Origin: an uncultured Candidatus Saccharibacteria bacterium
GTDB lineage: Bacteria > Patescibacteriota > Minisyncoccia > UBA6257 > JAGOQP01
Length of the DNA stretch: 64,000 nucleotides
Assembly (NCBI GenBank): GCA_964420205.1
Contig: CAYQSO010000002.1
Coordinates: 7,765-71,764, forward strand
Reading direction: 5' to 3'
Part shown: positions 9,975 to 52,071 of the stretch, piece after piece
How positions within the stretch are numbered: position 1 is the stretch's first letter
Layout of the letters: every line of letters begins with the position of its first letter
Translations under genes and position numbers: made by a program
Notes under the pieces: model-generated
The model's input: only the letters and a program-made list of their open reading frames with translations
Databases searched by the model: none
Told to the model about the DNA's origin: nothing

Positions 9975-10061
9975 CGAAACCCATTTTAATACACAATTAT
10001 CTTAAGAATCTTCGCTTATTTTCTCTTCTAGACTCCCCATAAAAATTCTTACTAACTATAT

Positions 10062-10397
10062 TTAGCCGTACCATCTACCTAACATTTGTGCTAATGCTAC
10101 CCTACTATTTAACTCTATTTCAATATCTCTCAAAATACACTCTATCTCATAAATAGCATTAAATATACTAACATTATCTATTTTAGATTCTATTCGTTTA
10201 ATATCATCTTTATAAAATAGTATACGAAATAATACAGACCCGTCAAAATCATAATAAATTAAATCAAAATACTTATCTTTTCTATTAAAAGATAACTTTA
10301 CCTCCCTCTTGCCCAACTTAGTATCAAAAATATTCTTCCCATTTAGCATCTTCGCTATTTTTTCTATTCTTTTAAAAGTTTCTTTATAATTACACAT
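10062..10397 (-). CDS. hypothetical protein
   Basis: 111-aa ORF co-oriented with neighbours; no recognisable motif. Confidence 0.3.
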   Translation of the reverse strand: MCNYKETFKRIEKIAKMLNGKNIFDTKLGKREVKLSFNRKDKYFDLIYYDFDGSVLFRILFYKDDIKRIESKIDNVSIFNAIYEIECILRDIEIELNSRVALAQMLGRWYG

Positions 10398-10413
10398 TTT
10401 TATCTACTTCTTT

Positions 10414-10725
10414 CTACTTATATTTATATTTATCATCATATTCAGGGGGTTCATATCCTAAATCTTTTAAGTCTCCTAAATACATCCCCTTATACTTTTT
10501 TTCTACCTCTGGTTCTACATAATAAGAATACATCTTACATTTAGTTTTATAAAACTCGCTACCTTTAATTAGTACATTGTGTGTTTCCAATTCCTGTAAT
10601 AGAGGGCAATATGGAATACCACTTTCGTCCCTATCTTTAGTATTATTTACACATGTACTACACTTATCTAACGGAGATATTGAAAGCTCATACTTCTTAG
10701 TACTTTTATTATATACAACTTTCAT
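10414..10725 (-). CDS. hypothetical Cys-containing protein
   Basis: 103-aa ORF with CSTC...CPLL...C cysteines and a KYKYK tail. Confidence 0.3.
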   Translation of the reverse strand: MKVVYNKSTKKYELSISPLDKCSTCVNNTKDRDESGIPYCPLLQELETHNVLIKGSEFYKTKCKMYSYYVEPEVEKKYKGMYLGDLKDLGYEPPEYDDKYKYK

Positions 10726-10967
10726 TACAAAATTTCATCCACTAAATCATCTAACTTTGTTAATTTTTCTCTAGTTTTATTTCCAATTTTACTATTTTTT
10801 AAGAGACCTGTCAATATCCTCTTCATTTCTTGTAATATTTCATTATTTGTCTCTACAAAAATATTGGGTCTTTTTACTAAATACTTATGCAATACTGTTT
10901 TTTCTAAACAGAATTTTCTTTTTCCACCCCTAGATAAATAATAATTACAATTTTCATATGTAAGCAT
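10725..10967 (-). CDS. hypothetical protein
   Basis: 80-aa ORF whose start overlaps the stop of the downstream gene. Confidence 0.3.
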   Translation of the reverse strand: MLTYENCNYYLSRGGKRKFCLEKTVLHKYLVKRPNIFVETNNEILQEMKRILTGLLKNSKIGNKTREKLTKLDDLVDEIL

Positions 10968-12625: not shown

Positions 12626-13960
12626 TCATTCTAAAACAATTACATTTGAAGTTACTAATTCGCTTTTTCTTGCTTCATTGTACTCTCTTTTGTTGTTGCT
12701 TGCAACAACTACTTGAGTTTGTTTTAACACTCCACAAGCTTTACTAACTCTAACAGAATTAAAGTTAGTTCCCGACAAGCCATCGGTACATGTATTCCTT
12801 ACTTCATTAAGTAGGATATAATCTTTACAGTTCTTGAGATTAACTGCTGCATTGTAGTCTCTTTGGTGCTCTGCACCACAATTACTACATTTCCAGTTTC
12901 TATCTTTTAATTTTAGTTCTTTATTCTTCTCTCCACAGCTACTACATAACTTACTACTTGGAAAGAATTTATTTACTTCTCTTACTTCTATATTATGTTT
13001 TGTACACTTCTGTACAAGAACTTGTTTAAAATAGTAAGGTTTATTTTGAAGAATAGTTTTAGAAAGATGTTTGTTCCTAACCATTCCTTTAATATTTAAG
13101 TTTTCAACTGTAACATATCTAGGTTTCCCCTTAACTATGTTATCTATACATTTATTAGTATAAGAGTTTCTTATTTGTTCTAACCTGTAGTACACTTTTT
13201 CTACTCTTAGTTTATTTTTAATATAATTGTTACTTACTTTATCTCTCTTTTCTTTCTTCTTAGCTTCGTACTTTCTACTTAAAGCTCTCTGTTCTCTTCT
13301 TAATTTCTTTTCTAACTTTTTAACTCTAGTAGTTTTATTAATGTTTTTGTATTCTTCTTTGTTAGAACATGTTAAGAAAGTACTTATTCCCCAATCAATA
13401 CCAATACCTTCATTACAATTCTTATTATCTTTACTACTCTCTTCATCTGTTATAACAGAGATGAAATATCTATTAGATCTCTTAGTTATTACTCCACTTA
13501 TTATTTTATTGTTTCCTGTAGGGAGGTATCCTTTCTCTTTCAGAGAAACCTCTCCGAACATAGGAATTTTAATTTTATGCCTAGAACATCTTATAGGTCT
13601 GTTTGCCTCTACTCTAACAAAATAAACTCCTGTCTTGTCTTTAGAAGCTTTTTTAAATTTAGGAAATCCTTTCTTTGATTTAAATGCTTTTTGGTAAGTT
13701 GAATTACAATTATCTATAGTCTTTCTAAGAGCTTTACTCCCTGCTTCTTTCAACCAATGTTTATCTTCGTTCTCTTTTAAATAAACATTATTAAACCATT
13801 TAGAGAACTCGTAGTTATTAAGATATTTTTCTCCTGCGGAGTAACGTTCTTTATTAACAGAAATAAAAAGATTCCAGACAAATCTACATGCAGAAATTGT
13901 AAGCTTGTAAAGCTTCTCCTGTTCTTTATTTAGTTTTACTTCTGTCTTGTAAGCTTTCAT
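12626..13960 (-). CDS. tnpB: TnpB (IS200/IS605-family OrfB; OMEGA RNA-guided RuvC nuclease), copy 1
   Basis: Canonical MKAYKTEVKLNKEQEKL N-terminus, C-terminal zinc finger CSSCGEKN...CSNCGAEHQRDYNAAVNL (RuvC-III). The track ORF extends to 14086, but Met43 at 13958..13960 is the likely start, judged by alignment to copy 2. Confidence 0.85.
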   Translation of the reverse strand: MKAYKTEVKLNKEQEKLYKLTISACRFVWNLFISVNKERYSAGEKYLNNYEFSKWFNNVYLKENEDKHWLKEAGSKALRKTIDNCNSTYQKAFKSKKGFPKFKKASKDKTGVYFVRVEANRPIRCSRHKIKIPMFGEVSLKEKGYLPTGNNKIISGVITKRSNRYFISVITDEESSKDNKNCNEGIGIDWGISTFLTCSNKEEYKNINKTTRVKKLEKKLRREQRALSRKYEAKKKEKRDKVSNNYIKNKLRVEKVYYRLEQIRNSYTNKCIDNIVKGKPRYVTVENLNIKGMVRNKHLSKTILQNKPYYFKQVLVQKCTKHNIEVREVNKFFPSSKLCSSCGEKNKELKLKDRNWKCSNCGAEHQRDYNAAVNLKNCKDYILLNEVRNTCTDGLSGTNFNSVRVSKACGVLKQTQVVVASNNKREYNEARKSELVTSNVIVLE

Positions 13961-13993
13961 TGATAAAAAGAAAAGTTCTAAGAAATTATTTTG

Positions 13994-14057
13994 TAAGCAG
14001 ATACAATTCTTCCTAGAACTAAAATTAATATAAATCTTATTTAATTGTATCTGCTTA
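13994..14057. repeat. perfect 15-bp inverted repeat (taagcagatacaatt / aattgtatctgctta) with 34-nt spacer in the presumed IS left end
   Basis: Read directly from sequence (13994..14008 and 14043..14057); lies between the real tnpB start and the over-extended track start. Confidence 0.7.
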
Positions 14058-14175
14058 ATATTATAATTTAACTTAAAATTTTTCATTTAGATTTCCCTGT
14101 AAAGGTATTAAAAATGAATATGTTTTACATATATTTGATTATGTTATGGGAGACTGTTCATTATCTTCTCTCCTC

Positions 14176-15069
14176 TTAATTAAATACAGTACTTGTTTCA
14201 CGATGTTTTTCTCTTATATTTCCTATGCAAATGGAGGGTGCTTTTAATTCTATTAAAGTTTTATGGAGAGATATATCTCCCTCCCCTCTCCTTTGTAGTT
14301 TAGCTAAAACATCGGCTACTTTTATAAAAGTAATATTTTCTTTTATTACTTTAGAATCAAAAGCACCATCTATAAAAATTTCCTCATCCTGTTTACACGG
14401 AACTTTTAATTTTACCATTTCACCAGTTTCTGTATCGAACTGTAAATAAAATATTTGTCTATCTCTATTGTAAGTATTTTTATCATGTCTTGTAAAAGAC
14501 CCTATTCTATATAAGATACTATTTCCCACAAAAAGATCATCATACGGCGAATGATCATGATTAAGACACACATACTTATAATTAAGTTTTTTAATATCTT
14601 CTGCTGTTAAAGACTCTTCAAGGCACAAATCCATCTCGTAATAATTGTGTCCTAAAAGTACACCCTCATTCTTCTCATCTACTGGTATTTTACTAATATT
14701 CTTTTCACATAGAGAGACCCCAAACAAAACATTATCTAAATAAAAAAAGTTAGTCTTTACGTCTATTACACCTGTTAACATCAAAGAGCCTAATGTAGTT
14801 TTTTCTAAATTATAATTTCTTAACATTACATCGTGGTTTCCGGGAATTACAATAAACTTCCCTTTGTGCCGTTTAAAGAACTTATAGACTATATTAAAGA
14901 AAAAAGTACTATTTGCAAAACTATGAAATAAATCTCCTGGGATAATACAAACATCATTATTATTTGCAACGTATTCTAGTTTATCTAAAGTACTTTGGAG
15001 AAAATTATCTTTTCTTATACGAGGATTCCTCTCTTGTAAATGTATATCATTTATTATTGCTATTTTCAT
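14176..15069 (-). CDS. SbcD/Mre11-like calcineurin-type nuclease (T4 gp47-like)
   Basis: Metallophosphoesterase motifs INDIHL, PGDLFH, PGNHD and GHNY...H; downstream of an SbcC-like ATPase. Confidence 0.65.
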   Translation of the reverse strand: MKIAIINDIHLQERNPRIRKDNFLQSTLDKLEYVANNNDVCIIPGDLFHSFANSTFFFNIVYKFFKRHKGKFIVIPGNHDVMLRNYNLEKTTLGSLMLTGVIDVKTNFFYLDNVLFGVSLCEKNISKIPVDEKNEGVLLGHNYYEMDLCLEESLTAEDIKKLNYKYVCLNHDHSPYDDLFVGNSILYRIGSFTRHDKNTYNRDRQIFYLQFDTETGEMVKLKVPCKQDEEIFIDGAFDSKVIKENITFIKVADVLAKLQRRGEGDISLHKTLIELKAPSICIGNIREKHRETSTVFN

Positions 15070-15078
15070 TATTAATTC

Positions 15079-15666
15079 CTATATTACTTTTAATTGACAG
15101 AACTCTGGTTTGTGTCCTTTTTGCCAAACACAATGACAATAAGCTATCGAATCTGTCTTATTTGGTTCCCCTGGAATAAACCCCATTCTTTTATGATGTA
15201 CAAAGCAGTATTTAGGCATGTTCTCTTGCCAAAAACTAAAACGATCTTTAGACTCAAAGAAATTTAACCTAAGTAGCATTATAACGTATCCACCTTCTAC
15301 TGTGTCTAATAATGCTTTCTTAATTATATCTATTGCATTGTAAAACGGAGGATTTGTTATAATTAAATCCCATTCTATTTTTGAAGATACTTCCATAGTT
15401 AAATAATTACCTTTTAAGTCAGCCTTACTATCCTCTCTTATATCTACTGTCATTACAAAGTTATCAGTAAATTTACTAAGAGCATTAGGGTAACTCATTT
15501 TATATTTATCTGCACCTCCCGCACAAGGGTCTAATATATTTAAAGCATTTTCAAATATGTTGCCTTCTACTTTTATAAACTCCCCTAGAAATTTTTCTAT
15601 TTCATGTATTGGAGTTACGTAAAAATCTGCTTTATGACGTTCATAACCTCTATTAGTACTTGACAT
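15079..15666 (-). CDS. N6-adenine (NPPF-type) methyltransferase, small
   Basis: SAM-binding DPCAGGADK followed by catalytic ITNPPFYN; 195 aa; embedded in the SbcCD cluster. Confidence 0.5.
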   Translation of the reverse strand: MSSTNRGYERHKADFYVTPIHEIEKFLGEFIKVEGNIFENALNILDPCAGGADKYKMSYPNALSKFTDNFVMTVDIREDSKADLKGNYLTMEVSSKIEWDLIITNPPFYNAIDIIKKALLDTVEGGYVIMLLRLNFFESKDRFSFWQENMPKYCFVHHKRMGFIPGEPNKTDSIAYCHCVWQKGHKPEFCQLKVI

Positions 15667-16884: not shown

Positions 16885-17243
16885 TATTCATCCTCTTTAT
16901 CATCTACTTGCGTACGTATAAATAATTCATTAAAAATTTCTTGTATAAGATCATCCGGTAGTTTTAAAATTTCTCTAATTACACTGTCAACATTGGTCAT
17001 TCCCACATATTCCATATCATCGGTACTATCATAAAACCCTGCCCAATCACAGTAGTCACAACCTTCCCCAAAACATTCATCACACTTTTCTACGGCTTCT
17101 CTGAAATCTCCCCTAGGGTCAAGCTGCCCTTCTGTTCCAAATCTATCATTACTTTTTAAATTATTTAAAGCATCTTGAAGCAAATTACAAAGACCACTTG
17201 ACGAACCATTTTCCAGTATATTTTTGAAAAAATCTTTACTCAC
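16884..17243 (-). CDS. acidic CxxC protein (possible Rad50 zinc-hook-like fragment)
   Basis: CDECFGEGCDYCDW cysteine pairs; 119 aa; overlaps the upstream ORF by 8 nt. Confidence 0.3.
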   Translation of the reverse strand: MSKDFFKNILENGSSSGLCNLLQDALNNLKSNDRFGTEGQLDPRGDFREAVEKCDECFGEGCDYCDWAGFYDSTDDMEYVGMTNVDSVIREILKLPDDLIQEIFNELFIRTQVDDKEDE

Positions 17244-18489
17244 AACTATTTCCTACTAATAATTGACCACATTTATCACAACGGTATTTCTCATACTCTT
17301 TTAATTTAACATCTGTATCAAATATTTTTTTATCTAGTATATTTTCATTTCTAGTACAACTCTCTATATCCGACTCAATCTCTTCTACCAATTTTATACT
17401 CTTTACTACTTCTATATATTTGTCACTAATTGTTTCTACTAAATCTATTTTATCTTGTTGCTTTACTATTTTACAATAATTACTTAGAGATTTCAACTCA
17501 CCTAAAGCGTTTTTTAAAAGAATATATTTATTCAGTATTTTTAAAGATATTTCTTCTATGGGAATTAAGTCTATTTGAAATTGATTCTCTATTTCTTCCA
17601 GTTCTATTAAAGCACTTAAAATCTTCCCGTACTCAATTAAACTATCAAAAGAAATTATCTCTTCTTTATTTTCTCCCCCTATTATTTTACAGTAGTAGTA
17701 TATCTCTTTGAGTTCTCTTAAACTCTTTACAACCTCAACATACTCATTTAGTATATCGTAAGGCCTTACTTCTACTTCAGTAGTATCCTCGATAATATTT
17801 AGATAATTAACTGTCTCTTCTACTGCTTCTATACTAATAGAAACCTTAGAAAAGTCCTTATTTAATTTAATAAGATTATCTCGTACTCTTTCTAAATTTT
17901 CTTTTTTAACACTCTTCTGTAAGTCTTCTATTAAAATAATTTTATCTTTATTTCTCTGAAACTCTATTTCTTTCTCTTTTATCTCAGAAGAAAGTAAATC
18001 TTCTTCCTGTTTATAGGCTTGAAAAATCTTAGCACTATCTGAAACAGAAAATATATTTTCAAATAATTTAAACAACTCCGAGTTTGTTAGCCCGTAAGGA
18101 AATAGTATTTCTTTTATTCCTTCTATATTATAACACTTATTCTTATTCCCGTCATAAGTAAAACCAGTATCTTGTAGTAACTTAAATAGATTAGAGTTCC
18201 CTACTTTCTTATACTCCTCACCATTAATTATATACATAGATTCTTTCTTAGTACGTACCCATGTAATATCATTACCATTATATAGCATACGTACTTTTGC
18301 ACAATCTGTTCCAATTCTTATTTTATTTTGAGACCCCGATGGATTAAGTAAAAGATATTTTAACGCCCTAAAAATTGCAGACTTACCATTCCTACTTTCA
18401 CCTGTTATAAGAGTTAACCCTTTATTAAAAACAATATGTTCTTTTTTAATAATCTCAAAATTTTCTATAAATAATTCTAATTTATTCAT
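17236..18489 (-). CDS. SbcC/Rad50-like ATPase, N-terminal lobe with coiled coil (T4 gp46-like N-half)
   Basis: Walker A GLTLITGESRNGKSAIFRALKY at the N-terminus, then about 300 aa of coiled coil ending in CDKCGQLLVGNSC. Confidence 0.65.
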   Translation of the reverse strand: MNKLELFIENFEIIKKEHIVFNKGLTLITGESRNGKSAIFRALKYLLLNPSGSQNKIRIGTDCAKVRMLYNGNDITWVRTKKESMYIINGEEYKKVGNSNLFKLLQDTGFTYDGNKNKCYNIEGIKEILFPYGLTNSELFKLFENIFSVSDSAKIFQAYKQEEDLLSSEIKEKEIEFQRNKDKIILIEDLQKSVKKENLERVRDNLIKLNKDFSKVSISIEAVEETVNYLNIIEDTTEVEVRPYDILNEYVEVVKSLRELKEIYYYCKIIGGENKEEIISFDSLIEYGKILSALIELEEIENQFQIDLIPIEEISLKILNKYILLKNALGELKSLSNYCKIVKQQDKIDLVETISDKYIEVVKSIKLVEEIESDIESCTRNENILDKKIFDTDVKLKEYEKYRCDKCGQLLVGNSCE

Positions 18490-26796: not shown

Positions 26797-27207
26797 TTAT
26801 AAACTCCTTATTATATTTGTTATTTTATTTAAAGCGTCTTCAAATTTTTTCTTATAGTATTCTTGACAATCATTTAATCCGTAATTTTCGCTTACTATAT
26901 TAGACCAATGTAAAGGGCTGGTGATTAGCTCTATTTCATAACTATCATCCAAGTCTATCCCATTATCAGAAAAAGCATCTTCCCTAATATCAATGTAAAT
27001 ACCTTTTTCAGAGCTTAAAATCTTATGAAAGTATTCTGCCCCTAATGCACATGAGCTGTGCCCATACCTATAAAATGGGAACGTAACTTCGATTTCTTTT
27101 GTTTGAGTAACAGTTTCTTTAATTTTAATCTTTTGTTTCATCCCTAGTACCTTTCTTATTGTTCCAATACACCTTGTTAGAAAATAACATAAATAAAGGA
27201 ATTCCAC
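26797..27207 (-). CDS. hypothetical protein
   Basis: 136-aa ORF. Confidence 0.3.
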   Translation of the reverse strand: MEFLYLCYFLTRCIGTIRKVLGMKQKIKIKETVTQTKEIEVTFPFYRYGHSSCALGAEYFHKILSSEKGIYIDIREDAFSDNGIDLDDSYEIELITSPLHWSNIVSENYGLNDCQEYYKKKFEDALNKITNIIRSL

Positions 27208-27409
27208 TCCTATAAGCTAAGTTATAACATCTTACAAAACCAAGGTCAAACCCTGCTCCAAACATTAACATTACTTAATCCTTTAGGTCGTACCGTTTAT
27301 TTAACTTGCTTTTATCTTCTAGAATATCGTCCATCCACCTACCCTCGAGTAAAACCTCTTCTAGATATTCGTCTAATTCTTCATTTATTGGTTTATATTC
27401 TTCCATTAT

Positions 27410-27658
27410 TTATTCTTCTCTAATAATTCTTTTAAGATATTTTGATTTAATTTGTATAGTCAATATATTTTCTAAAAACTTTTCGCTAAGTTTAGTTCTT
27501 TTTTCTACTATGTTTAACAGTCCCTCCGAATCACTATCCTCTAGCACACCTATATTATCTACTAGATCTTCAAAAACAACACCAAACTTACTATTCAAAT
27601 CTTGGGAACTTTTTAAATACCCACTTAGTTCTTGACTTAGGGAATTATATTCTTCCAT
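27410..27658 (-). CDS. hypothetical small acidic protein
   Basis: 82-aa ORF. Confidence 0.25.
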   Translation of the reverse strand: MEEYNSLSQELSGYLKSSQDLNSKFGVVFEDLVDNIGVLEDSDSEGLLNIVEKRTKLSEKFLENILTIQIKSKYLKRIIREE

Positions 27659-27661
27659 TAT

Positions 27662-27988
27662 TTAGTCCTTAACTGTAAACTCAAATATTGTAAACATTGT
27701 TTCATCACCTATGTCAGAGTATATTTCTGTTAAAACCTCTTCTAGCTCTCTTTTGTCCTGAAAACCGTCATTTTCAGCATCTTGATTTGTTAGAGAAAAT
27801 AAAGTTTTAAATTCTAATCTATCTAAGGTTGCATAAGCAATATCTTCTTCAAAATTATCATTACTGTCTCTTAACGCTTTTAAGACTAAATCCCTACTTT
27901 CAGGGATTCTTACTCCTTTTCGAATAGTAGTAAATTTTTCTCCTGATAAAGTCATTTGAAAATATTCATCTTTAAATAATAATTCCAT
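27662..27988 (-). CDS. hypothetical small acidic protein
   Basis: 108-aa ORF. Confidence 0.25.
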   Translation of the reverse strand: MELLFKDEYFQMTLSGEKFTTIRKGVRIPESRDLVLKALRDSNDNFEEDIAYATLDRLEFKTLFSLTNQDAENDGFQDKRELEEVLTEIYSDIGDETMFTIFEFTVKD

Positions 27989-28007
27989 TACCTATTCCCC
28001 AATCTTT

Positions 28008-28829
28008 TTAATAACTCTTAGTTTGAAATCCACTAGCTTTTACATGTCCGCCACCACCGTATTTCTCAGCTAACTTAGAACAGTTTATGTTATCTTTCTT
28101 AGTATAAATAGAAATAGTGTATTGCTGCCCATCATAGAAGAAAGGCATCATCAAATCAAAGTCTTCCTTTACACTGTCAAATAACTTACTCGACGTTTTC
28201 GCTACGTTACAGCAAACTGCTTTATGTCCCTCAAACTCTGCAAAAAACCCAACAGCTTCTATAACCTCTTTATATAACTCAGTTCTATATTGTAAAGCAT
28301 TCCTACCCTTCCCCAATACTTCTTTTAAGCCGTTCCCAAAAACCCAACTCAACCAATTATTACTATTCGGTGAAGTATCAAACAAAACTAAACCCGCTTG
28401 TAAAACATCTAATTGTTTTCCATACTTACCAAAATCCCAGACATCATAATGTCCTACCATTTCTACTGCTTTTGGAACTTTAACATTTGGATTATAATAT
28501 TCCCATGTTAACATGCAACCGGCAGTACCATCTCTTCTTATACCATCAAGAGTTTTGTTCTCTTCTTTATTTTTATTAATCGCTGAAATATGGTGATCAA
28601 TCCATACCACATTTTTAGTAATATCTAATAGTTTTTTAAACTCCCCTTCCTTTTGTAAAGAGAAATCTACTATTATTACTTCTTCATCTTTCTTTATTTT
28701 ATCGAATGGAAAATCTTTATTATAATCCATTTCTATAAGATCGTTATTTTTTACTTTATTTATATTTGCTCTATAAGCTATAAATGCAGAGCATCTTCCA
28801 TCTGCATCATTATGATAAAATATCTTCAT
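28008..28829 (-). CDS. DHH-DHHA1 family phosphoesterase (NrnA/RecJ-core-like)
   Basis: N-terminal HNDADGRCSA (DHH motif I region), WIDHHIS (DHH) and C-terminal GGGGH (DHHA1). Confidence 0.7.
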   Translation of the reverse strand: MKIFYHNDADGRCSAFIAYRANINKVKNNDLIEMDYNKDFPFDKIKKDEEVIIVDFSLQKEGEFKKLLDITKNVVWIDHHISAINKNKEENKTLDGIRRDGTAGCMLTWEYYNPNVKVPKAVEMVGHYDVWDFGKYGKQLDVLQAGLVLFDTSPNSNNWLSWVFGNGLKEVLGKGRNALQYRTELYKEVIEAVGFFAEFEGHKAVCCNVAKTSSKLFDSVKEDFDLMMPFFYDGQQYTISIYTKKDNINCSKLAEKYGGGGHVKASGFQTKSY

Positions 28830-28894
28830 AATTATTTTCTCCTTTCCTTCAGATTATTATAATCTCTCTATTATATTTTTGTCAACTACTCTGT

Positions 28895-30760
28895 TTATAT
28901 TTTCCAACTATATTCTCCATTAGGTTTTTTCAAAATGTTAATTAGAGACACACTACCATTTCTGTATATTATAGCAGAGCTATTCAACCACGTAGATGGT
29001 CCATGATTATAACCCATCCTCAATTTAGATAAGGTTCCTGTTTGGACTACATTCCTATGTATTCTAGGGGAGTGTGAGTGTCCTATAATTGCTTTAGGAT
29101 AGCACTTTTCTATATTTACAGCAGAACCTCTAGCTCCATTTGGTCCTAAAAAACCATGATTAGCACACTGCCACCCTTTTACACAATAGTCCTCATCGAA
29201 ATCTAACCACCTCATACTTATATTGTCTGATAAACCTACCTTTTCCTCCAATGTATACTGTAATGGATTCTTACCCTCCATATAAGCTTTACATATATCT
29301 AAAGCATAATAGCAATTTTGAGCATCATTAAGAAAACGACCATCCTCAATATAGCGTGTCAAGAAAGCGTCGTGGTTGCTTCTTATCACTACTACTTCCC
29401 CATCAATCCAACTACCAACATCCTCTAGATACTCTGCTGTTTGTATACACTCTTTTTCCAAGGACCCTACCCCATTTATAGCATTAGTCGCTCTTATAAT
29501 AGGTTTACTGTAGGTGTGGTGTGATATAGAACCCCCCTCAAACAAGTCATGGAGTAATACAGAATTTGTATTAGTCTCGTAAACTATTTCTTTCATTATT
29601 TCGTGAACTTCATCATCTTTTTCAGAAGCGTGAGAATCCCCAAAAACCATAACAGAGTCTTCCAAATATTCTATAGAGCCATCAGAAAAATACTCTGTAT
29701 TAATATCACAAAAACTTTCAGATTCCTCTATATACTGTATTTGTCTAAAATGAAAAATTTCTTCATCTTCAACTTCTACTACTACTGCACTTACCTTATG
29801 ATCCTGATCTGCAAGCTTGGAAAGCCGTTTACTCATATAAAAATCTGTTTCATAATTATTTACTGTGATTGCACCTGTACTCATTATAGCAATAGGGACT
29901 TTATTATTCCCCGTCGGAACAAACTCAAGAAATTGCTTCGGCGATGCTAAAACCATTGACCCTCTTCCTTGTCCCAATCTAGAAAGCCCTCTAGTAGGGA
30001 GTAGAAATTTCGCACTCACCTTAATATCACTGATAAAAATATTATTATTTAAATAAGTATCTTTAAATACCACGTAACCTAAATCTCTTAATTTTGGATC
30101 TAAGTCCCATTGACATGGCGATTTTCTATTACAAACATCCTCACAAGGTAAAATAAGAGTAAGTGCTTTTTGTCTCTTAGCGTAGTTCTGTAAAGTTTTA
30201 TAAAATCCTTCGTGTACTTTCTTACCGGATACTGCTGTAGTTATTACAAACCTCTTGTATTTTTTAACCTCTTTTCGAAACACTGTATTATAGTCCTCCG
30301 TAAAAGATGTCTCATTAAATACTAGTTTTTTTATTTCTTTATTCTTTTCTGCTGTCTCATTAAAAAGTTCTATAATAGAATTGAAATGTTTCCTTATTGT
30401 TCTCCTATCAATCATAGAATAAGTGACAAATTCCTCTAATGACGGAATTCTATTTAATTCCTTAATATAGTCTGAGAAAACCTCTATTATCGAATCTTTT
30501 TCTACTAAAATCTCATCTTTCTTTTCTCTGTTTTCTTTTATAATTATTGGCTTAGGAAAAAATAGATTTAACGCATTCCTGTAACCCCCGATCTGGAATA
30601 AGTTATCTTTATGTAAATATACAATTTTGTTTTCCAGGCACGTTCTACAATACTCGTCTCTCTTAATACGCCATGGTTCTTTTTTAAGTATTTTAGCTAC
30701 CTCTTGTAAAGACTCTTTAAAAATACACGTCAATTCTTGTAAATTACTACTTCTTACCAT
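28895..30760 (-). CDS. large protein with C-terminal calcineurin-like metallophosphoesterase domain
   Basis: C-terminal third has VMVFGDSHAS, LLHDLFEGG, IRSNHDAF and GHSHSP motifs (GDxH / GNH[DE] / GHxH); the N-terminal 350 aa are unassigned. Confidence 0.5.
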   Translation of the reverse strand: MVRSSNLQELTCIFKESLQEVAKILKKEPWRIKRDEYCRTCLENKIVYLHKDNLFQIGGYRNALNLFFPKPIIIKENREKKDEILVEKDSIIEVFSDYIKELNRIPSLEEFVTYSMIDRRTIRKHFNSIIELFNETAEKNKEIKKLVFNETSFTEDYNTVFRKEVKKYKRFVITTAVSGKKVHEGFYKTLQNYAKRQKALTLILPCEDVCNRKSPCQWDLDPKLRDLGYVVFKDTYLNNNIFISDIKVSAKFLLPTRGLSRLGQGRGSMVLASPKQFLEFVPTGNNKVPIAIMSTGAITVNNYETDFYMSKRLSKLADQDHKVSAVVVEVEDEEIFHFRQIQYIEESESFCDINTEYFSDGSIEYLEDSVMVFGDSHASEKDDEVHEIMKEIVYETNTNSVLLHDLFEGGSISHHTYSKPIIRATNAINGVGSLEKECIQTAEYLEDVGSWIDGEVVVIRSNHDAFLTRYIEDGRFLNDAQNCYYALDICKAYMEGKNPLQYTLEEKVGLSDNISMRWLDFDEDYCVKGWQCANHGFLGPNGARGSAVNIEKCYPKAIIGHSHSPRIHRNVVQTGTLSKLRMGYNHGPSTWLNSSAIIYRNGSVSLINILKKPNGEYSWKI

Positions 30761-30887
30761 TTAAATTCCTCTATTTAATTAAATACTTTTATATTTTAAT
30801 GTATTTTACTCAACGAGTACCCAATTAAAGAATTGTTTTATATTTAATAAATCCCCTGAGACAACTCTTCCATACACCCAAAAAACA

Positions 30888-31148
30888 TTAAACAATAACC
30901 CATCCTTTATTCCCAAAATAATTAAGTAAACTATTCCTATCTTTTGTTTCATATACTTCTAAATAGGTACCGTTATCTTGCATTATTGCTAATCCATAAG
31001 ATAATACCCCCATTTCTAATTCACTGCCACTAGTTTCTTTAGGATAAGATAAACACTTATATGTTATTTTAGCACACGGAATAGTAATTGTGAAGCTTTT
31101 ATGAGAAATTTTATTTAATAATCCGTGAAAATCTATACTATTTTTCAT
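30888..31148 (-). CDS. hypothetical protein
   Basis: 86-aa ORF. Confidence 0.25.
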   Translation of the reverse strand: MKNSIDFHGLLNKISHKSFTITIPCAKITYKCLSYPKETSGSELEMGVLSYGLAIMQDNGTYLEVYETKDRNSLLNYFGNKGWVIV

Positions 31149-31485
31149 TATAAAATCTTTCTAATATATCATCTGTTATTTTTCTAACTGTGATTGAATA
31201 AGAATACAAATTAAACATATTAATTAAACTTAAATGTTCGAAGTACACGTGTACTACCTTATTACTTTTAAACAAGACAATAATTTTATATTTAAGTGTT
31301 CGATGATCATAGTCTACTGCTACATAATCTATAATATTCTTACTTCTTAAATAATATTTTAAATATTTAAGAAGTCTATCTACTTCGTTAAACTTTTTCC
31401 AACTCTGTTTATGTTCTACTTCAATAGAACTGAACCAACATAAAATATCTTCTTTTATTTTATTGAAACTTAAACTTATTCTCAA
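31138..31485 (-). CDS. hypothetical protein
   Basis: 115-aa ORF. Confidence 0.3.
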   Translation of the reverse strand: MRISLSFNKIKEDILCWFSSIEVEHKQSWKKFNEVDRLLKYLKYYLRSKNIIDYVAVDYDHRTLKYKIIVLFKSNKVVHVYFEHLSLINMFNLYSYSITVRKITDDILERFYNEK

Positions 31486-31847
31486 CCTAATTCTATCCCA
31501 TTATCGTTATAAAATTCTATCGCAGAAGAAATAGCGTCCTCCATTTTTTCTACATCATCTGTCCTATAACCCTTTTCAATAATATAATAAAGTTCTTTTA
31601 TTAATTTGTATTGCCTATTAGCCTCATCTATATAAGATTCCATATCATTTATTGTAAAATTTAAATCATCTATTTTTTCTTCTAACTCATCTATTTCTGA
31701 CACTAAATCTTGAGAAAAACCACGTCCCGTTTCTAATTTTACTCGTTTTTCTAAACATTCAAAAGAACAGTAAAAATCTCCATTATATTTAATAGAGTTC
31801 TCGTCTATTCTTGGAGAGTAACATGTATTACATAAACTTATTATCAT
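31482..31847 (-). CDS. hypothetical zinc-ribbon/coiled-coil protein
   Basis: CNTCYS...CSFEC cysteines; 121 aa. Confidence 0.3.
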   Translation of the reverse strand: MIISLCNTCYSPRIDENSIKYNGDFYCSFECLEKRVKLETGRGFSQDLVSEIDELEEKIDDLNFTINDMESYIDEANRQYKLIKELYYIIEKGYRTDDVEKMEDAISSAIEFYNDNGIELG

Positions 31848-38353: not shown

Positions 38354-41300
38354 TTAGAGCGGTTTCGGTATTAAAGTAGTACGTGATTCATCATCTACCC
38401 ATTTAAAATCGAATATTTGTCCAAAACGATACCCCAGTCCAATTGTAGCTTTAATAGGCAAAGGCCAATCTGGTAAGCTAAAATACATTATATCTTCTAT
38501 TAACCTAGTGTATTCTACTATTTTATCTAAATCAACATAAAGGTTCACTTCGTCATGTATTGTCGAAAGAAAAGCACACTCTTTTTCTTTTTCGGATATA
38601 CTAAATATTTTCTGATACATCTTCTTAAGAACTATACGCATAATATCCCCCGCACTTCCCTGGATTATGTGGCTGCTGACTCTTCTCTCAGCAGCAGATA
38701 TCATATTATTTGACTCTCTTTCACCTTTCCTAGGGTCTTCTGCTTCTCTTTCTATCCTCTCAGCCATATTTACATATGACCCGAAGCGTCTGGGCCTCCC
38801 ACAGAACGTAAATGTAGTTCCGGCATTATTCCACATCTTATTTATTTCATTTTGTCTCCATTGCATAGCCCCAAAAAAAGCTTCACAATAGGCATCATAA
38901 AGAGCTGTTGCGTGTTCTAACGGGATTCCAGAATTCTTAGATATGGAATCAGAATGACCACTATAATTTATAGCAAAATTCACAGCCTTTGCTATTTTTC
39001 GTAGCCCCTTGTTATAATTTTCTCTACCCCATATAGCGTACGCTGTCGCAGTATGTGGATCAATACCTTCCCTGAAATTTGATAACTTTACACTATCTTT
39101 ACTGTAATTAGTAAGGAGAACGTCTTCCTGTGAACTGTAATCCACACTCAAAATAATCTTTTTCTTACTATTAACCTTTTTAAATGATGGAACTACTACA
39201 CAATTTCTAATATTAAAATTAGGGGAGAACCCTTCTACTAAATAACAGTCTTCTGAGTCAGTGTGGTTTTTAATGTCTTCATCAGACATTAAATCAAAAC
39301 ACCAACCTAATATATTACCCTCTTTCTCAGATTTGTATGCTTTATAAATCGCTCCTGACGGTTTACTAAGATTCTGCGCATTAAGATCTATATAATAGGG
39401 GTTCTTAGTCTTCTTATCACTCTTACTCCCATTACCACTTGCAAATCTCCCTGAAGCGGTCCCAAAAAGTTTATATCTCATCCTACACTCATCTACCTTA
39501 GTCAGTTTATCAATGTAACTATTGATAGCCTTATTCATAGTAGAGTACTTCTGTATCTTCTTTAAAATACTTAACTTTTCATTTTCTTTTTTAAGCATTA
39601 TTTTTAATATTTTTAAAAAATATTTTCTATTGAGAATTCTACTTCCTTTTTTAAGCGGAACTAGTTTCTTATTTTTATTCTTTCTTTTCGCTCTGCTCAA
39701 TACTCTTATAGTATTGTTATTCAACTGCATTACTTGGAAATAGTCACTCCCATGTGCTTCTAGTATTTTATATAAATAAAACATATCTACGTGTTCTCTT
39801 ATATGTAATTCTGAAGCACAAAATCCTTTTGTAAAATAACCTTCTTCATTCTTTTCTAATTTTTCTATAATACCTCGTAAATCTGTTAAATTCTTAGAAA
39901 ATATTCTTGTACCATCTTTTTTACCAAAAGAAATCTGATCTGTATCTGTCCTTGCCCCAGTATCTATATTCTTAGATGCCATAGCATTTTTAAACTCTTT
40001 AGAAGAGGTACTAAGGTTGAATATTCCTATATCAAAATAATTATATATTTCCTCCTTAAGCTGAGTTATTACTTCGATAGCTTTTTCTTTATATTTTTTA
40101 GCTTCTTCTTTATCTATATAAAGTTTAGTATGTCCATAATAATCAATCCAATACCTTATAAGAGTGTTGTCTGATTTTATAACGTCAAATTTTTTACCGT
40201 TAAACTCTACTATATTGGGGTAAGTACTTATTAGTTTTTTAACTTTCGGATATAAATAGTAAAAAAGTGCCAAGCAGCAACATGAGTCTGCACAATTACC
40301 CGAAACCAAGACTTTACCATTTCTTCTAGTTATTAAAGTGTGATTTGGTACTTCTGCACAATAAACCACCCCACTATATGGAACAATTTCTCTCTGGTAT
40401 TTCTTGTATCTAACACTTTTCTGTCTTTGTGTGTACACACTATAAATTTGGTGCACATTTTCTCTTTTTATTACACGTCCTCTAATAACACAGTCTTTTT
40501 TAGGTGGTGCTTTTAAAGTTAATATACTAGTCCTACCACCCAACATTAATAGCTCTTGTAACTGATTAGCCATTTTGATAGATGTAGTATAAAAAACCCA
40601 CGCTGAGTCAGTTTTTCTAGACCCATCACAATAATTAAAATATTTTAGAAACTCATTTATACAGTACGAATCCATTTTAAAAATTTCAGGTGGAATATAC
40701 TTTTTCTGAGCCTTACCTTCCATATAAGGTTTTATCCAATTATAAAACTTTTTATTATAACAAACCCAGCTATTCCCTTTTTCTCTTTTGTTAGGGCGAA
40801 ACCCCATATTAGTTTCCATTAACATATTTTCTAACTCTTTTTTGAATTTATCGCTACAAACAGCCAGCCCTATGTGATAACAAACTTGCTTGTCGCCTCT
40901 TTGAACAATCCAACCATCTGCCAACAACGCACCTGTTAATCTGGCTAATTGTACAGGGGTTAAATTAACATTCTTACTAAAATGAAAAGAATCCTTCCCA
41001 CTACCTTTCTTCTCTGTGGGAGCTTTATAACCGCTTTCTTCAACTAAAAGATCTTTTGCCTGTTTGAATACCCATTCTTTATGTTGTGCTCGCTTAACTA
41101 GCATATTATGGTTGGGGGTAACACAAAAATCAAGATGTTTACTTTTATAAGAAATCATCTCTCCTTTATATTCATACGCATATAACCTTAGAGGACGCTG
41201 GTACTCTAATTCATCTTTTTCCACATTTACAGTAGCTAAAAGGTCTTCTCCATTATAATCTTTCCACATTACCCAACCATTTTCAGTCAATACTTCAGTC

Positions 41301-42319
41301 TGATCATCGTGGCATGCATAAATAACTGTGCTCCTATCGTAGGGGCATACATACTTGAATTCACCCGGAAATTCTAACATAGTACGTCCTAGATACAATT
41401 TAGCACTTAACTTAAGTCCTGCCATTTTTGACTCCGCATCAAAAAGATACGGAAGTATCATAGAGTCAAAAAAGTTAACTTTTTCAATAGAATAACCTTC
41501 TTTCTTATACATATTAAGGTCAAATTCAGCATTATGGATTACTACTAACTTTGCACTTGTTAAAGCTTTATATAAAATATCAAGGGACTTTTTTGCACTT
41601 CTCTCATTTTCTTCTTCTGTTAAAACATAACTAGAAACTTCCATTTCAGATAAATGCTTTTCAAAGTCTCCTATCATACAGTCTATACTACCAAGTTTAG
41701 CTTCTACTACTTCTTTTTCTAAATCTTTAGAATTTTCAAGAAAGTTTTCTTTATCTTGTTTTAACCCATCTATTAATTTTTGCGTCTCTTCTCTTTGTCT
41801 CTGTAATTCTAATTGCTCCCTTACTTCTTTGCTACATATATTTCCATTATGTAATGAATACTCATACGTCTTTACCGTAGTCTGACTTACTCTTCCTGTT
41901 TTAGTATATACTACATTTCCTTCTTCATCTAATTTAGGAACTTTTTCTGAACCCACTTCTTTTTTTCGCATATGTCTCAAAGGGCAATAAATCCCCGAAT
42001 TGTCGTCCAGTGAAAGAGAGAACCCTACAATGTAATCACCACCTTCTTCTCGAGGTGAACTGTTCAGTCCAGTAGTTTCAGTGTCAAACCCGATTATCTT
42101 ATCTTTACAAAGTTCTACGAATTCTTCCAACTCTTCTAAAGTATTAACAAGTTTATAGTCCCCTAAATAAATAAGATTCCCTTCCTCATCGTATTTATGA
42201 AACTTATTATCAAACTCTCTATAACCATGTACAGGTATATATTTGTACAACGTTTTACTGCTTTTTTTCTTTTGTTCTACCTTTTGTTGAACATATTTTT
42301 TCTTATAATCTTTTGTCAT
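38354..42319 (-). CDS. family A DNA polymerase (3'-5' exo plus polymerase domains) precursor containing an intein
   Basis: Exo I IGFDTETTGL; polymerase motif A LSVDYSSQE, motif B RKIAKAVNFAINYS, motif C LSTIHDEVN. The likely true start is MTKDYKK, 12 codons inside the track ORF (which begins at 42355). Confidence 0.85.
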   Translation of the reverse strand: MTKDYKKKYVQQKVEQKKKSSKTLYKYIPVHGYREFDNKFHKYDEEGNLIYLGDYKLVNTLEELEEFVELCKDKIIGFDTETTGLNSSPREEGGDYIVGFSLSLDDNSGIYCPLRHMRKKEVGSEKVPKLDEEGNVVYTKTGRVSQTTVKTYEYSLHNGNICSKEVREQLELQRQREETQKLIDGLKQDKENFLENSKDLEKEVVEAKLGSIDCMIGDFEKHLSEMEVSSYVLTEEENERSAKKSLDILYKALTSAKLVVIHNAEFDLNMYKKEGYSIEKVNFFDSMILPYLFDAESKMAGLKLSAKLYLGRTMLEFPGEFKYVCPYDRSTVIYACHDDQTEVLTENGWVMWKDYNGEDLLATVNVEKDELEYQRPLRLYAYEYKGEMISYKSKHLDFCVTPNHNMLVKRAQHKEWVFKQAKDLLVEESGYKAPTEKKGSGKDSFHFSKNVNLTPVQLARLTGALLADGWIVQRGDKQVCYHIGLAVCSDKFKKELENMLMETNMGFRPNKREKGNSWVCYNKKFYNWIKPYMEGKAQKKYIPPEIFKMDSYCINEFLKYFNYCDGSRKTDSAWVFYTTSIKMANQLQELLMLGGRTSILTLKAPPKKDCVIRGRVIKRENVHQIYSVYTQRQKSVRYKKYQREIVPYSGVVYCAEVPNHTLITRRNGKVLVSGNCADSCCCLALFYYLYPKVKKLISTYPNIVEFNGKKFDVIKSDNTLIRYWIDYYGHTKLYIDKEEAKKYKEKAIEVITQLKEEIYNYFDIGIFNLSTSSKEFKNAMASKNIDTGARTDTDQISFGKKDGTRIFSKNLTDLRGIIEKLEKNEEGYFTKGFCASELHIREHVDMFYLYKILEAHGSDYFQVMQLNNNTIRVLSRAKRKNKNKKLVPLKKGSRILNRKYFLKILKIMLKKENEKLSILKKIQKYSTMNKAINSYIDKLTKVDECRMRYKLFGTASGRFASGNGSKSDKKTKNPYYIDLNAQNLSKPSGAIYKAYKSEKEGNILGWCFDLMSDEDIKNHTDSEDCYLVEGFSPNFNIRNCVVVPSFKKVNSKKKIILSVDYSSQEDVLLTNYSKDSVKLSNFREGIDPHTATAYAIWGRENYNKGLRKIAKAVNFAINYSGHSDSISKNSGIPLEHATALYDAYCEAFFGAMQWRQNEINKMWNNAGTTFTFCGRPRRFGSYVNMAERIEREAEDPRKGERESNNMISAAERRVSSHIIQGSAGDIMRIVLKKMYQKIFSISEKEKECAFLSTIHDEVNLYVDLDKIVEYTRLIEDIMYFSLPDWPLPIKATIGLGYRFGQIFDFKWVDDESRTTLIPKPL
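40295..41314 (-). mobile_element. intein in DNA polymerase (about 340 aa, LAGLIDADG type) inserted in the Exo III motif (YA|C..D)
   Basis: VIYA|CHDDQTEVLTENGW...LARLTGALLADGW...FLKYFNYCDGS...VPNHTLITRRNGKVLVSGN|CADSCCCLALFYYL; the extein junction restores the Y-x-x-x-D exo motif. Coordinates by residue counting (aa 348..687). Confidence 0.6.
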
Positions 42320-42644
42320 TATTAAAATTAACTCCTGTACTAGATAAACCAACATTAGTGAAATTAAAATCTTTGTACTTCCACCAATCTTTTTTCTTCA
42401 TCATCTTTTTAACTTTTCTTGGGTACTTATCCCACCTACAGTACTTCCCGATACCTAATATGTAATTAAATATTATTAATTTTACTCTATTTTCTATATT
42501 AGTTTGAATTTCTCCCACACATTCGCCATAGGGCTCTCTTACAGCAGAAGTAGCAGTATCTCTTGACTCACATAAATATTGAGACGATATTCCTGTTGCC
42601 ATAACAATGTCTTGTCTTAATTTATATAATCTCTCTTCTATCAT
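42303..42644 (-). CDS. hypothetical protein
   Basis: 113-aa ORF upstream of the polymerase. Confidence 0.3.
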   Translation of the reverse strand: MIEERLYKLRQDIVMATGISSQYLCESRDTATSAVREPYGECVGEIQTNIENRVKLIIFNYILGIGKYCRWDKYPRKVKKMMKKKDWWKYKDFNFTNVGLSSTGVNFNNDKRL

Positions 42645-49891: not shown

Positions 49892-50406
49892 TATGGATTG
49901 AATACCTCTGGGTAACCTGTAAAAGTTTCAATCCCGTCTATATGAACATACCCTTTAGGAACAGTTACTTTGTCTATTTCTATTCTTTTAAAAAATTTTA
50001 ATCTACCTTGTATCATCAAATCCCATATAAAATTAAAAAATAACTGATACTGCTTATTAGCAGGTTCTAAATCAAAAGCTCTAAAAGAACAATGAGCACT
50101 TAAATAAGGTATTTTCTTACCTTTTACAATAGAATCTATGTTTGACCTCAATCCTCTCTGTGTCATATTACCATTAAAAGCCCACGTATTTATAAAAATG
50201 CCCTTAGACAGGACTTTAAGATCAGAGAAGGTATCACAATATTCTTCCCACTTTTCTCTTATAAAATCTAACTCCCTCGGAGCTTGTTCAGGGAACATTA
50301 ACCATAAAAATTCCTCTCCAAAACGAGGAACATAATAATTATATACTAAAGGGCTAACTAACTCCTTTAAAATAAAATGTTCACACTTATACATACTACA
50401 CACCAA
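49891..50406 (-). CDS. LAS-superfamily zinc peptidase (M15-like), possible peptidoglycan hydrolase
   Basis: SAHCSFRAFDL fits S-x-H-x4-A-x-D and the downstream GYVHIDG fits the second His ligand of M15 peptidases; 171 aa. Confidence 0.4.
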   Translation of the reverse strand: MVCSMYKCEHFILKELVSPLVYNYYVPRFGEEFLWLMFPEQAPRELDFIREKWEEYCDTFSDLKVLSKGIFINTWAFNGNMTQRGLRSNIDSIVKGKKIPYLSAHCSFRAFDLEPANKQYQLFFNFIWDLMIQGRLKFFKRIEIDKVTVPKGYVHIDGIETFTGYPEVFNP

Positions 50407-51312: not shown

Positions 51313-52071
51313 CTATATCTCTATTACTAAATCTTCTTGAAAACCTGTGTCTTCATTAGGGTATCCTAATTGGTTGCTAATAAAAACTACCTCACCGTTA
51401 GTAAAGGGTTTACTAATTCTATGAGAACAGTGAGTATGCCCTGAAAACCAATATGTACAGAGTCTCTCTGCTTTATTAAAATCATCAGTCAAATCAACTT
51501 CGAAAGCATACTTCAGTACACTATTACTTTCTGTTAAAAAAGGTTGATGGTGTGTTACTACTATACAGACCTCTTTACTATTATTTAACTCATTAAAAAT
51601 ATATTCTTTACTTTGTTCATATAAGTAATTAACGAAAAACGGAGTTATCCCTTTATAATTAAGTTTTTCAGTAGTAATATATTTATAATCATTTAAACCA
51701 AACTGGATATTATAAATATCTGTCGAATTCATTCTATTGAAATCTGTCCAAAGCGTACTTCCTATAAACCTGACATTATCTATTACTACTGAACTATTAT
51801 TTAAAAAGAAATATCTATCATTTTCTTCAGACTTCTCTTTCATTCTCCTATCTATCTTTTCCATCCTATGACTAGAATAATATAGATGATTTCCAGGAAC
51901 CTCTACTATTTTTAAAATAGGGTATTTTTTTAATAATTTATCAGAAAATTCCCACGCTGTAAGACCCTCACCTATATCTCCAGCAAGACACAAAACATCT
52001 ATACCCTCTAAATTAGGTTCATAATCTAGTCTAAACCCTAAATGTATATCACTAAATAATTTTATTTTCAT
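51313..52071 (-). CDS. calcineurin-like metallophosphoesterase
   Basis: MKIKLFSDIHLG, LCLAGDIGEG, VPGNHLYY and GHTHCSHR motifs. Confidence 0.7.
   Translation of the reverse strand: MKIKLFSDIHLGFRLDYEPNLEGIDVLCLAGDIGEGLTAWEFSDKLLKKYPILKIVEVPGNHLYYSSHRMEKIDRRMKEKSEENDRYFFLNNSSVVIDNVRFIGSTLWTDFNRMNSTDIYNIQFGLNDYKYITTEKLNYKGITPFFVNYLYEQSKEYIFNELNNSKEVCIVVTHHQPFLTESNSVLKYAFEVDLTDDFNKAERLCTYWFSGHTHCSHRISKPFTNGEVVFISNQLGYPNEDTGFQEDLVIEI

Follow-up and report, generated by a model that had tools for sequence, protein, structure and literature searches.

The two adjacent phosphoesterase genes on the reverse strand at positions 28008-30760 of the window (the whole 64-kb stretch of DNA analysed here) probably encode two independent enzymes of nucleic-acid catabolism that are neighbours by chance, namely a homologue of the phage T5 protein A1 that would act as a DNase on host DNA, and a DHH-DHHA1 enzyme that would clear oligonucleotides. 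What appeared to be a phosphoesterase cluster is in this way turned into a recognisable host-takeover gene with an unrelated neighbour. Both open reading frames are present exactly as in the original prediction, and the alternative given there, a role in breakdown and salvage of host nucleic acids, is the better supported one. Our observations concern homology, motif conservation, folds, synteny and a pairing that is not conserved. The window surrounding both genes represents a replication and recombination module, and a megablast search of 20 kb of it against 50,697 phage records returned no match to a close cultured relative.

The larger gene (28895..30760, reverse strand) encodes a protein of 621 aa which, judged by sequence, is an orthologue-grade member of the family of the T5 pre-early protein A1 ('DNA transfer protein'), and not the generic calcineurin-like protein that it was first taken for. 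Amino acids 118-610 match phrog_1745 (E 5.8e-92; profile positions 33-535 of 542), and BLASTP aligns aa 158-617 (~460 aa) with aa 85-554 of the T5-type A1 of Escherichia phage SUT_E1620 at 27% identity (E 1e-37). The family is large, comprising 1951 clusters at 50% identity, and a total of 1131 phage records match the protein in tblastn, most of them annotated as A1 or DNA transfer protein and including phages of Vibrio, Flavobacterium, Caulobacter and Rhizobium. Comparison with the sequences in the PDB gave no meaningful match.

The N-terminal 350 aa, previously left unassigned, are mostly A1-family sequence. The helical extension formed by aa 1-85 (30506..30760, reverse strand, as for all parts of this gene) is lineage-specific, being missing or replaced in most family members, and the helical region that follows (aa 86-165, 30266..30505) is common to most members outside T5. 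This second region weakly resembles HNH_repeat (PF18780, E 0.004, below the gathering score and in two of the ten members tested); a pair of homing-endonuclease-type repeats was considered and rejected, the Pfam match being sub-threshold and hhalign of the two halves giving a probability of 3.6%. The beta-rich middle domain (aa 166-365, 29666..30265) is specific to the A1 family, judged by alignment with T5 A1, where its counterpart lies at aa ~95-300, and by invariant residues including T175, V177, K180, P205 and D208; it is predicted with pLDDT mostly >85, and none of the structural matches in the PDB covers aa 166-365. The C-terminal metallophosphoesterase (calcineurin-like) domain (aa 366-621, 28898..29665) contains all five catalytic motifs, with GD375xH377, D405, N462-H463, H535 and H561xH563 invariant in 33 aligned sequences and motifs I-V lining up with those of T5-type A1. 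The predicted model of the protein is confident (pLDDT 90), and its C-terminal domain adopts a metallophosphoesterase fold resembling PolD-DP1, SbcD and Mre11. Despite this resemblance, sequence similarity to the Mre11/SbcD and PolD DP1 nucleases is not detectable and, unlike the Mre11/SbcD nucleases, the A1-like protein features neither a capping domain nor a Rad50 partner.

Genetic evidence identifies T5 A1 as necessary and sufficient for degradation of the host chromosome, A1 alone being enough for loss of the Escherichia coli chromosome, and for the A1 family this role is known from T5 A1 in vivo only (bioRxiv 10.64898/2026.04.02.716235). The two proteins share a two-part core, in which a beta-rich domain precedes a metallophosphoesterase domain, and the catalytic motifs GDxH, HD, NHD, H and GHxH are identical in both. 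They differ in that the A1-like protein has ~70 extra N-terminal residues, its first ~85 aa being lineage-specific, and in that its gene, unlike that of T5, is found outside any terminal-repeat first-step-transfer region, embedded between PolA and ligase in the replication module. Homologues of A2 and Dmp and a T5-like pre-early module were absent from the 64-kb window according to tblastn; the pre-early setting with A2 and dmp is a mark of the T5 lifestyle and not of the protein family. In one uncultured, low-GC group of phages A1 is therefore among the core genes for replication, and neither A2 and Dmp nor any recognisable setting of first-step transfer accompanies it. Such homologues would be useful to those working on T5 A1, because they could allow the roles in DNA degradation and in second-step transfer to be separated, and the variable N-terminal modules of the family are candidate determinants of DNA protection or targeting. 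A more speculative reading is that the A1 family could be a modular nuclease destroying host DNA, with exchangeable N-terminal targeting modules and operating outside T5-like two-step injection.

The original prediction had drawn on the two enzymes occurring together, and this arrangement does not hold up as a conserved pair. The DHH gene was found in none of eight A1-like loci (tblastn, ±4-10 kb) and the A1-like gene in none of five DHH loci (tblastn), and the tandem arrangement is therefore incidental; a conserved operon or module is further contradicted by a predicted promoter between the genes. In related uncultured phages the A1-like gene belongs to the fixed backbone, flanked by the genes for DNA polymerase A and DNA ligase, and the DHH gene occupies a variable slot, its homologues adjoining genes for replication, RNA-end processing or nucleotide salvage. 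The 65-nt gap between the two genes holds a perfect sigma-70 consensus, TTGACA-18-TATAAT (28856..28885, reverse strand), followed by the ribosome-binding site GGAAAGGAG, and the DHH start codon lies 26 nt downstream of the consensus. This is the sole 12/12 match in the 64-kb window, where 0.15 would be expected by chance, and the DHH gene is accordingly predicted to have its own promoter, separate from the A1-like gene. Downstream of DHH by 19 nt is a gene for an ASCH-domain protein of 108 aa (27662..27988, reverse strand; PF04266, E 1.1e-6, 29.7 bits against a gathering score of 21.2), which is possibly co-transcribed with it, and DHH-ASCH as a conserved pair was not seen among the five DHH loci examined. 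A weak terminator-like hairpin (27241..27255, reverse strand), the only such site in 27000-31600, where 1.2 are expected by chance, might tentatively be placed at the end of a transcription unit comprising DHH, ASCH and an 82-aa reading frame.

The smaller gene (28008..28829, reverse strand) encodes a protein of 273 aa belonging to phrog_4771, with the DHH domain at aa 1-~135, for which the Pfam match is above the gathering score, and the DHHA1 domain at aa ~194-273. Its motifs qualify it as a complete DHH-DHHA1 enzyme: motifs I-IV (DxD, D, DHH, D) and the GGGH of DHHA1 are all present, and D8/D10, D55, D78-H79-H80, D129 and G259-G260-G261-H262 are invariant or nearly so among homologues, of which 1067 were found at E <= 1e-5, mostly of 275-290 aa and labelled NrnB/COG2404-like by JGI. 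The predicted model (pLDDT 91.8) displays the two-domain fold with a linker helix and matches 81 PDB chains at E <= 0.001, all DHH-family among the matches listed; the best of these are dinucleases acting on linear dinucleotides (E 1e-11 to 1e-7). The same two-domain architecture, catalytic motifs and GGGH are common to the stand-alone DHH-DHHA1 dinucleases and nanoRNases (NrnA, TM1595, PggH, Rv2837c, DhhP; NrnB/COG2404). Unlike these, the protein is a member of a phage-borne clade and is shorter (273 aa vs ~310-340 aa), and the RxRxR motif, which binds substrate phosphate in the DHHA1 domain of NrnA (PMC9779919), is missing from the aligned segment of the protein. At this site, where TM1595 has SMRSK and DhhP has GLRSK, the protein reads T-I-S-I-Y-T-K-K (family consensus tvSxYTKK), i.e., an S-x-Y-T-K segment lacking arginine. 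The score for the NrnA equivalog of NCBIfam (NF053633) was 24.8 bits, falling short of the cutoff of 350.

In the reading that we consider best, the A1-like protein would be a two-metal enzyme of the metallophosphoesterase fold, most likely a DNase by analogy with T5 genetics, that degrades the host chromosome early in infection, bringing about host shut-off and the release of nucleotides. Unlike T5 A1, which has A2 and Dmp as partners, it would act without either, and its helical N-terminal extension may guide it towards a partner protein or towards DNA. The DHH gene would belong to a small accessory cassette occupying a variable slot, with expression driven by the gene's own consensus promoter. 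To judge from the structures most similar to the model and from the settings in which its homologues occur, the DHH protein would most likely convert dinucleotides or short linear oligonucleotides of RNA and/or DNA into mononucleotides. This would remove primer remnants or the products of degradation and would supply the RNR/ThyX nucleotide pathway of the phage.

Alternative roles can be envisaged for each of the two proteins. The A1-like protein could be something other than a DNase, such as a regulator or adaptor involved in host nuclease activation, RNA polymerase binding or control of DNA entry, or a small-molecule phosphodiesterase. We regard this as very unlikely, as catalysis is argued for by the invariant metal-binding and catalytic residues in the 33 aligned homologues, which match those of T5-type A1, and both the sufficiency of T5 A1 for chromosome loss and the position of the gene between polymerase and ligase in this phage group speak in the same direction. 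The DHH enzyme might serve replication or recombination instead of salvage, being either a minimal 5'-3' exonuclease similar to RecJ/Cdc45 or a primer or flap processor acting with the replisome. Structural matches to RecJ and archaeal RecJ-Cdc45 (E 4e-8 to 4e-6) and the replication and recombination character of the window are compatible with such a role, as are homologues placed beside a DnaG-like primase and DnaB (locus L005), a topoisomerase (L006) or RNase H and ligases (phage EL). However, the best structural matches are dinucleases and not RecJ, the whole 273-aa model corresponds to the catalytic core without the OB-fold or C-terminal extra domains of RecJ, and the RecJ_archaeal model of NCBIfam was not reached (18.4 bits vs a cutoff of 360), so that we consider this reading unlikely.

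Equally hard to favour is an anti-defence role for the DHH enzyme, alone or together with the A1-like protein, as a phosphodiesterase directed against cyclic di- or oligonucleotide signals (CBASS, type III CRISPR, Pycsar or similar systems). The idea is not new, as anti-signalling functions were predicted in 2021 both for phage DHH enzymes and for T5 A1 orthologues (Iyer et al. 2021; PMC7824862, section 3.4.8). For the 621-aa protein a role in degrading second messengers, as the original prediction proposed, is unsupported, this protein being a homologue of T5 A1, whose phenotype is degradation of the chromosome. The DHH enzyme has more in its favour: c-di-AMP phosphodiesterases are found among the DHH-DHHA1 enzymes, and the model matches the catalytic domain of GdpP at E 2e-8; the gene is an accessory insertion with a strong predicted promoter; one homologue lies near a Gad2-family gene (L013); and the family lacks RxRxR, so that another substrate is conceivable. 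Against this, its homologues reside mainly within modules for replication, RNA-end processing and salvage, linear dinucleotides are the substrates of the closest structural matches, and the pairing of the two genes is not conserved. Neither protein matched a PADLOC model or a known anti-defence family, and searches of the literature yielded no phage DHH or A1 protein degrading cyclic signals. Acb1, Apyc1 and AcrIII-1 are phosphodiesterases likewise carried by phages, with folds (2H, metallo-beta-lactamase and DUF1874, respectively) unrelated to those of DHH and A1. The membrane-associated ring nuclease of Sulfolobus is of the same DHH-DHHA1 superfamily, but in contrast to it the 273-aa model is fully folded with no apparent membrane anchor. 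In its most specific form, this idea would see the phrog_4771 clade (~275 aa, with an aromatic/lysine segment in place of RxRxR) as a dedicated anti-signalling enzyme, which could hydrolyse the cyclic di-/oligonucleotide messengers of immunity, or the linear products of these, and could enter the replication modules of many unrelated phages as a mobile, self-promoted cassette. If true, the clade would represent a family directed against CBASS or type III CRISPR that is new, a quite improbable outcome in our estimation. Its lack of RxRxR, together with a gene that roams and brings its own promoter, ranks the clade as a reasonable, low-priority candidate for substrate profiling.

Two further calcineurin-like open reading frames in the window had been taken as a hint of anti-defence activity, and their neighbours point elsewhere. 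The third (14176..15069, reverse strand) is an Mre11/SbcD-like nuclease subunit (Metallophos E 8e-11; SbcD-like phrog_100 E 6.6e-11) located ~2 kb from a Rad50/SbcC-like AAA_23 ATPase (17236-18489), and the fourth (51313..52071, reverse strand) is a phrog_1649 metallophosphoesterase (E 4.6e-34; Metallophos E 3.3e-9) adjoining a 5'-3' exonuclease (50396-51310; PF02739, E 3.5e-18). The possibility that the four phosphoesterases are paralogues of one expanded family was also considered and rejected, since similarity between the two small metallophosphoesterases is marginal (E 0.02) and both match PHROG/NCBIfam families different from that of the A1-like protein.

The large protein of the tandem, encoded by a 621-aa ORF located exactly where it was originally predicted (28895-30760, minus strand), can now be identified as a divergent new member of a known phage family, and this identification is the main value of the analysis. 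In PHROGs it matches phrog_1745 'DNA transfer protein' (E 5.8e-92, aa 118-610), and a tblastn search of 50,697 phage records returned 1131 matching records, the majority being T5-like phages with the match annotated as 'A1 protein' or 'DNA transfer protein'. The non-T5 records include Vibrio, Flavobacterium, Caulobacter and Rhizobium phages, and the top match is Ochrobactrum phage vB_OspM_OC (37% identity). In pairwise BLASTP, aa 158-617 of this A1-like protein align to aa 85-554 of the 556-aa A1 protein of Escherichia phage SUT_E1620, which like T5 belongs to the Demerecviridae (27% identity, E 1e-37), with all five catalytic motifs in register. The calcineurin-like domain proposed for the protein is real despite a Pfam Metallophos match of only E 0.016, as the active site is intact and its motifs (G374-D375-x-H377, D405, N462-H463, H535 and H561-x-H563) are invariant across 33 aligned homologues. 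Searched exhaustively, a set of 1.84 billion representative proteins yielded 1951 family clusters at E <= 1e-3, including 829 at E <= 1e-30.

Most of these clusters begin to match at query aa ~86-90, and the N-terminal 350 aa, previously regarded as one unassigned region, therefore divide in three: a helical extension specific to the lineage (aa 1-85; 30506-30760, minus strand), a helical segment common to most non-T5 relatives (aa 86-165) and a beta-rich A1-family domain (aa 166-365), for which no structural neighbour was found in the PDB. Ahead of a shared conserved core, the extreme N-terminus takes at least three unrelated forms (~80-170 aa) in different metagenomic lineages, T5 A1 has yet another version, and these variable modules may serve in targeting or partner binding. 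Similarity of the N-terminus to Pfam HNH_repeat was below threshold, and a suspected internal repeat was unsupported (hhalign probability 3.6%).

The A1-like protein has relatives with 43-54% identity on metagenomic contigs, and the closest of them (loci L011 and L001) keep the backbone order DnaB - 155 aa - PolA - (variable) - A1-like - (variable) - ligase - 162 aa - 377 aa - 171 aa - RecA - Rad50-like. In remoter relatives the gene still resides in a replication module, adjoining PolIII-alpha and RNR in L003. A secondary outcome is that A1 homologues are backbone replication-module genes, with swappable N-terminal modules, in a non-T5 phage group. In T5, second-step DNA transfer depends on A1, which is membrane-associated and pairs with A2 as a heterodimer (bioRxiv 10.1101/866236); homologues of the T5 partners A2 and Dmp were not detectable by tblastn in the 64-kb window.

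The smaller protein (273 aa; 28008-28829, minus strand, also precisely as predicted) is a bona fide DHH-DHHA1 enzyme, matching Pfam DHH (E 1.4e-8, above the gathering score), DHHA1 (E 3e-4, below the gathering score) and phrog_4771 'DHH phosphoesterase' (E 1.4e-39). Across 29 aligned homologues D10, D55, D78-H79-H80, D129 and G259-G260-G261-H262 do not vary, and D8 hardly does. The family comprises at least 1067 proteins, mostly of 275-290 aa, and is labelled by JGI as 'oligoribonuclease NrnB/cAMP/cGMP phosphodiesterase (DHH superfamily)'. The structure model (pLDDT 91.8) best matches an H. pylori homologue, PggH, DhhP, TM1595, Rv2837c and NrnA (E 1e-11 to 1e-7), stand-alone DHH-DHHA1 enzymes with linear dinucleotides, nanoRNA or pAp as substrates; scores are slightly lower for the GdpP catalytic domain and for RecJ. 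In NrnA-type enzymes an RxRxR motif contacts substrate phosphates (PMC9779919), whereas the aligned segment here reads S-x-Y-T-K-K. Because this motif is absent and the scores are far below the NCBIfam cutoffs for both NrnA and RecJ, we assign the protein to the DHH-DHHA1 superfamily and to neither of these.

The two genes are separated by 65 nt, and this gap contains a promoter for the DHH gene that is independent of its neighbour: a perfect TTGACA-N18-TATAAT at 28856-28885 (minus strand), the sole one across all 64 kb of the window (chance expectation 0.15). This sigma-70 consensus is oriented with the DHH gene, sits 26 nt before its start codon and precedes a GGAAAGGAG ribosome-binding site. 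Only 19 nt past the DHH gene is an ASCH-domain gene (27662-27988, minus strand; PF04266, E 1e-6, above the gathering score), ASCH being a PUA-like domain that binds nucleic acids or modified bases, and further downstream come an 82-aa ORF and a weak terminator-like hairpin. As promoter, closely spaced ASCH gene, 82-aa ORF and hairpin occur in series, the arrangement suggests a small self-promoted cassette, in which the DHH and ASCH genes would have a host-RNAP-dependent, probably early, transcription start. The DHH-ASCH pairing was absent from five other DHH loci. The slot between A1-like gene and ligase is filled differently in each relative: L011 has a 77-aa ORF, L001 a 221-aa ORF and a methyltransferase, L002 several small ORFs, and L012, whose contig stops before any ligase, a 173-aa ORF. 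With tblastn, a DHH homologue was found at none of eight A1-like loci (±4-10 kb) and an A1-like homologue at none of five DHH loci; the adjacency is therefore specific to the present genome, and the pair is not a conserved two-gene system.

The window represents the module for replication and nucleotide metabolism of a large uncultured phage, for which no near-identical phage is on record (megablast of 20 kb of the window against the 50,697 phage records). Its G+C content is ~30%. When ORFs were called by a simple greedy choice of the longest non-overlapping frames, 74 of 79 fell on the minus strand, an extreme bias, and GC skew is strongly negative all along the window (-0.14 to -0.40); both features are consistent with a single long direction of transcription or replication. 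The module includes a class II ribonucleotide reductase (6557-9928), a Rad50/SbcC-like AAA_23 ATPase of 417 aa (17236-18489) and DNA polymerase A (38354-42355), all on the minus strand, as well as DNA methyltransferases, a UvsX/RecA-like recombinase, an ATP-dependent DNA ligase, ThyX, a clamp-loader-like ATPase and DnaB helicase. The third and fourth calcineurin-like ORFs of the original prediction do exist, as an Mre11/SbcD-like metallophosphoesterase (14176-15069, minus strand; Metallophos E 8e-11) and an ORF at 51313-52071 (E 3e-9) adjoining a 5'-3' exonuclease, and are ordinary recombination and replication nucleases. Structural genes start near 55-64 kb of the window.

Degradation of immune second messengers, the role first considered for these phosphoesterases, is not a new idea, since an anti-CBASS, Pycsar or type III role was predicted by Iyer et al. 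2021 (PMC7824862, section 3.4.8) for T5 A1 orthologues as well as for phage DHH phosphodiesterases; experiments supporting that prediction did not turn up in literature searches. For the A1-like protein it is disfavoured by later T5 genetics, which points to DNA degradation. For the DHH enzyme, a hint comes from L013, a 63-kb contig with YopX-domain genes, in which a gene of the Gad2 family (anti-Gabija) is followed, ~700 bp further downstream, by a 52% identical homologue (the two at 8396-9280 and 10001-10894), the only context seen that points to an anti-defence neighbourhood. Elsewhere, DHH homologues are located between a DnaG-like primase and DnaB (L005), beside a topoisomerase (L006), inside an RNR - dUTPase - ThyA - NT5C salvage cluster on a prophage-like Clostridium contig (L007, L008), in a crAss-like phage where the gene overlaps one for a polynucleotide kinase/3'-phosphatase, and between RNase H and RNA ligase in Pseudomonas phage EL. 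On balance these circumstantial contexts favour nucleic-acid end-processing or oligonucleotide clearance over immune-signal degradation, and we consider cleavage of cyclic nucleotides by the DHH enzyme rather improbable. Breakdown or salvage of host nucleic acids, originally given as the alternative, is the better-supported reading, and the locus comprises divergent new members of two known phage protein families within an ordinary replication module.

We infer DNA cutting for the A1-like protein and oligonucleotide hydrolysis for the DHH enzyme. Under this breakdown reading, the two-metal site of the A1-like protein would cleave the host's DNA at an early stage of infection, in line with what T5 genetics indicates for A1, acting without A2 or Dmp and possibly targeted by its variable N-terminal helical module. 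The DHH enzyme would convert short oligonucleotides or dinucleotides, which primers or the breakdown of DNA or RNA could supply, into mononucleotides able to feed the phage RNR/ThyX pathway. Although the proximity of the genes would be fortuitous, their activities could be successive in one catabolic route, by analogy with T5, where A1 lies two genes from the 5'-deoxynucleotidase gene dmp.

DNA polymerase A bears an intein with a LAGLIDADG endonuclease (insert ~aa 262-698) that matches unrelated host genes in many phages, and the ribonucleotide reductase also carries intein/LAGLIDADG segments. Inteins further occur in the ligase of the A1-like relative L002 and in RecA of L006, an unrelated DHH-carrying contig, and the polymerase of L001 is split by a free-standing LAGLIDADG gene. 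Two TnpB genes (12626-14086 and 53422-54777, minus strand; OrfB_IS605 and Cas12f1-like TNB), about 40 kb apart, are 75% identical to each other. The ~2 kb between the Mre11/SbcD-like gene and the short Rad50/SbcC-like ATPase hold a DNA methyltransferase fragment-like ORF (15079-15666), and in L011 this ATPase is kept beside RecA.
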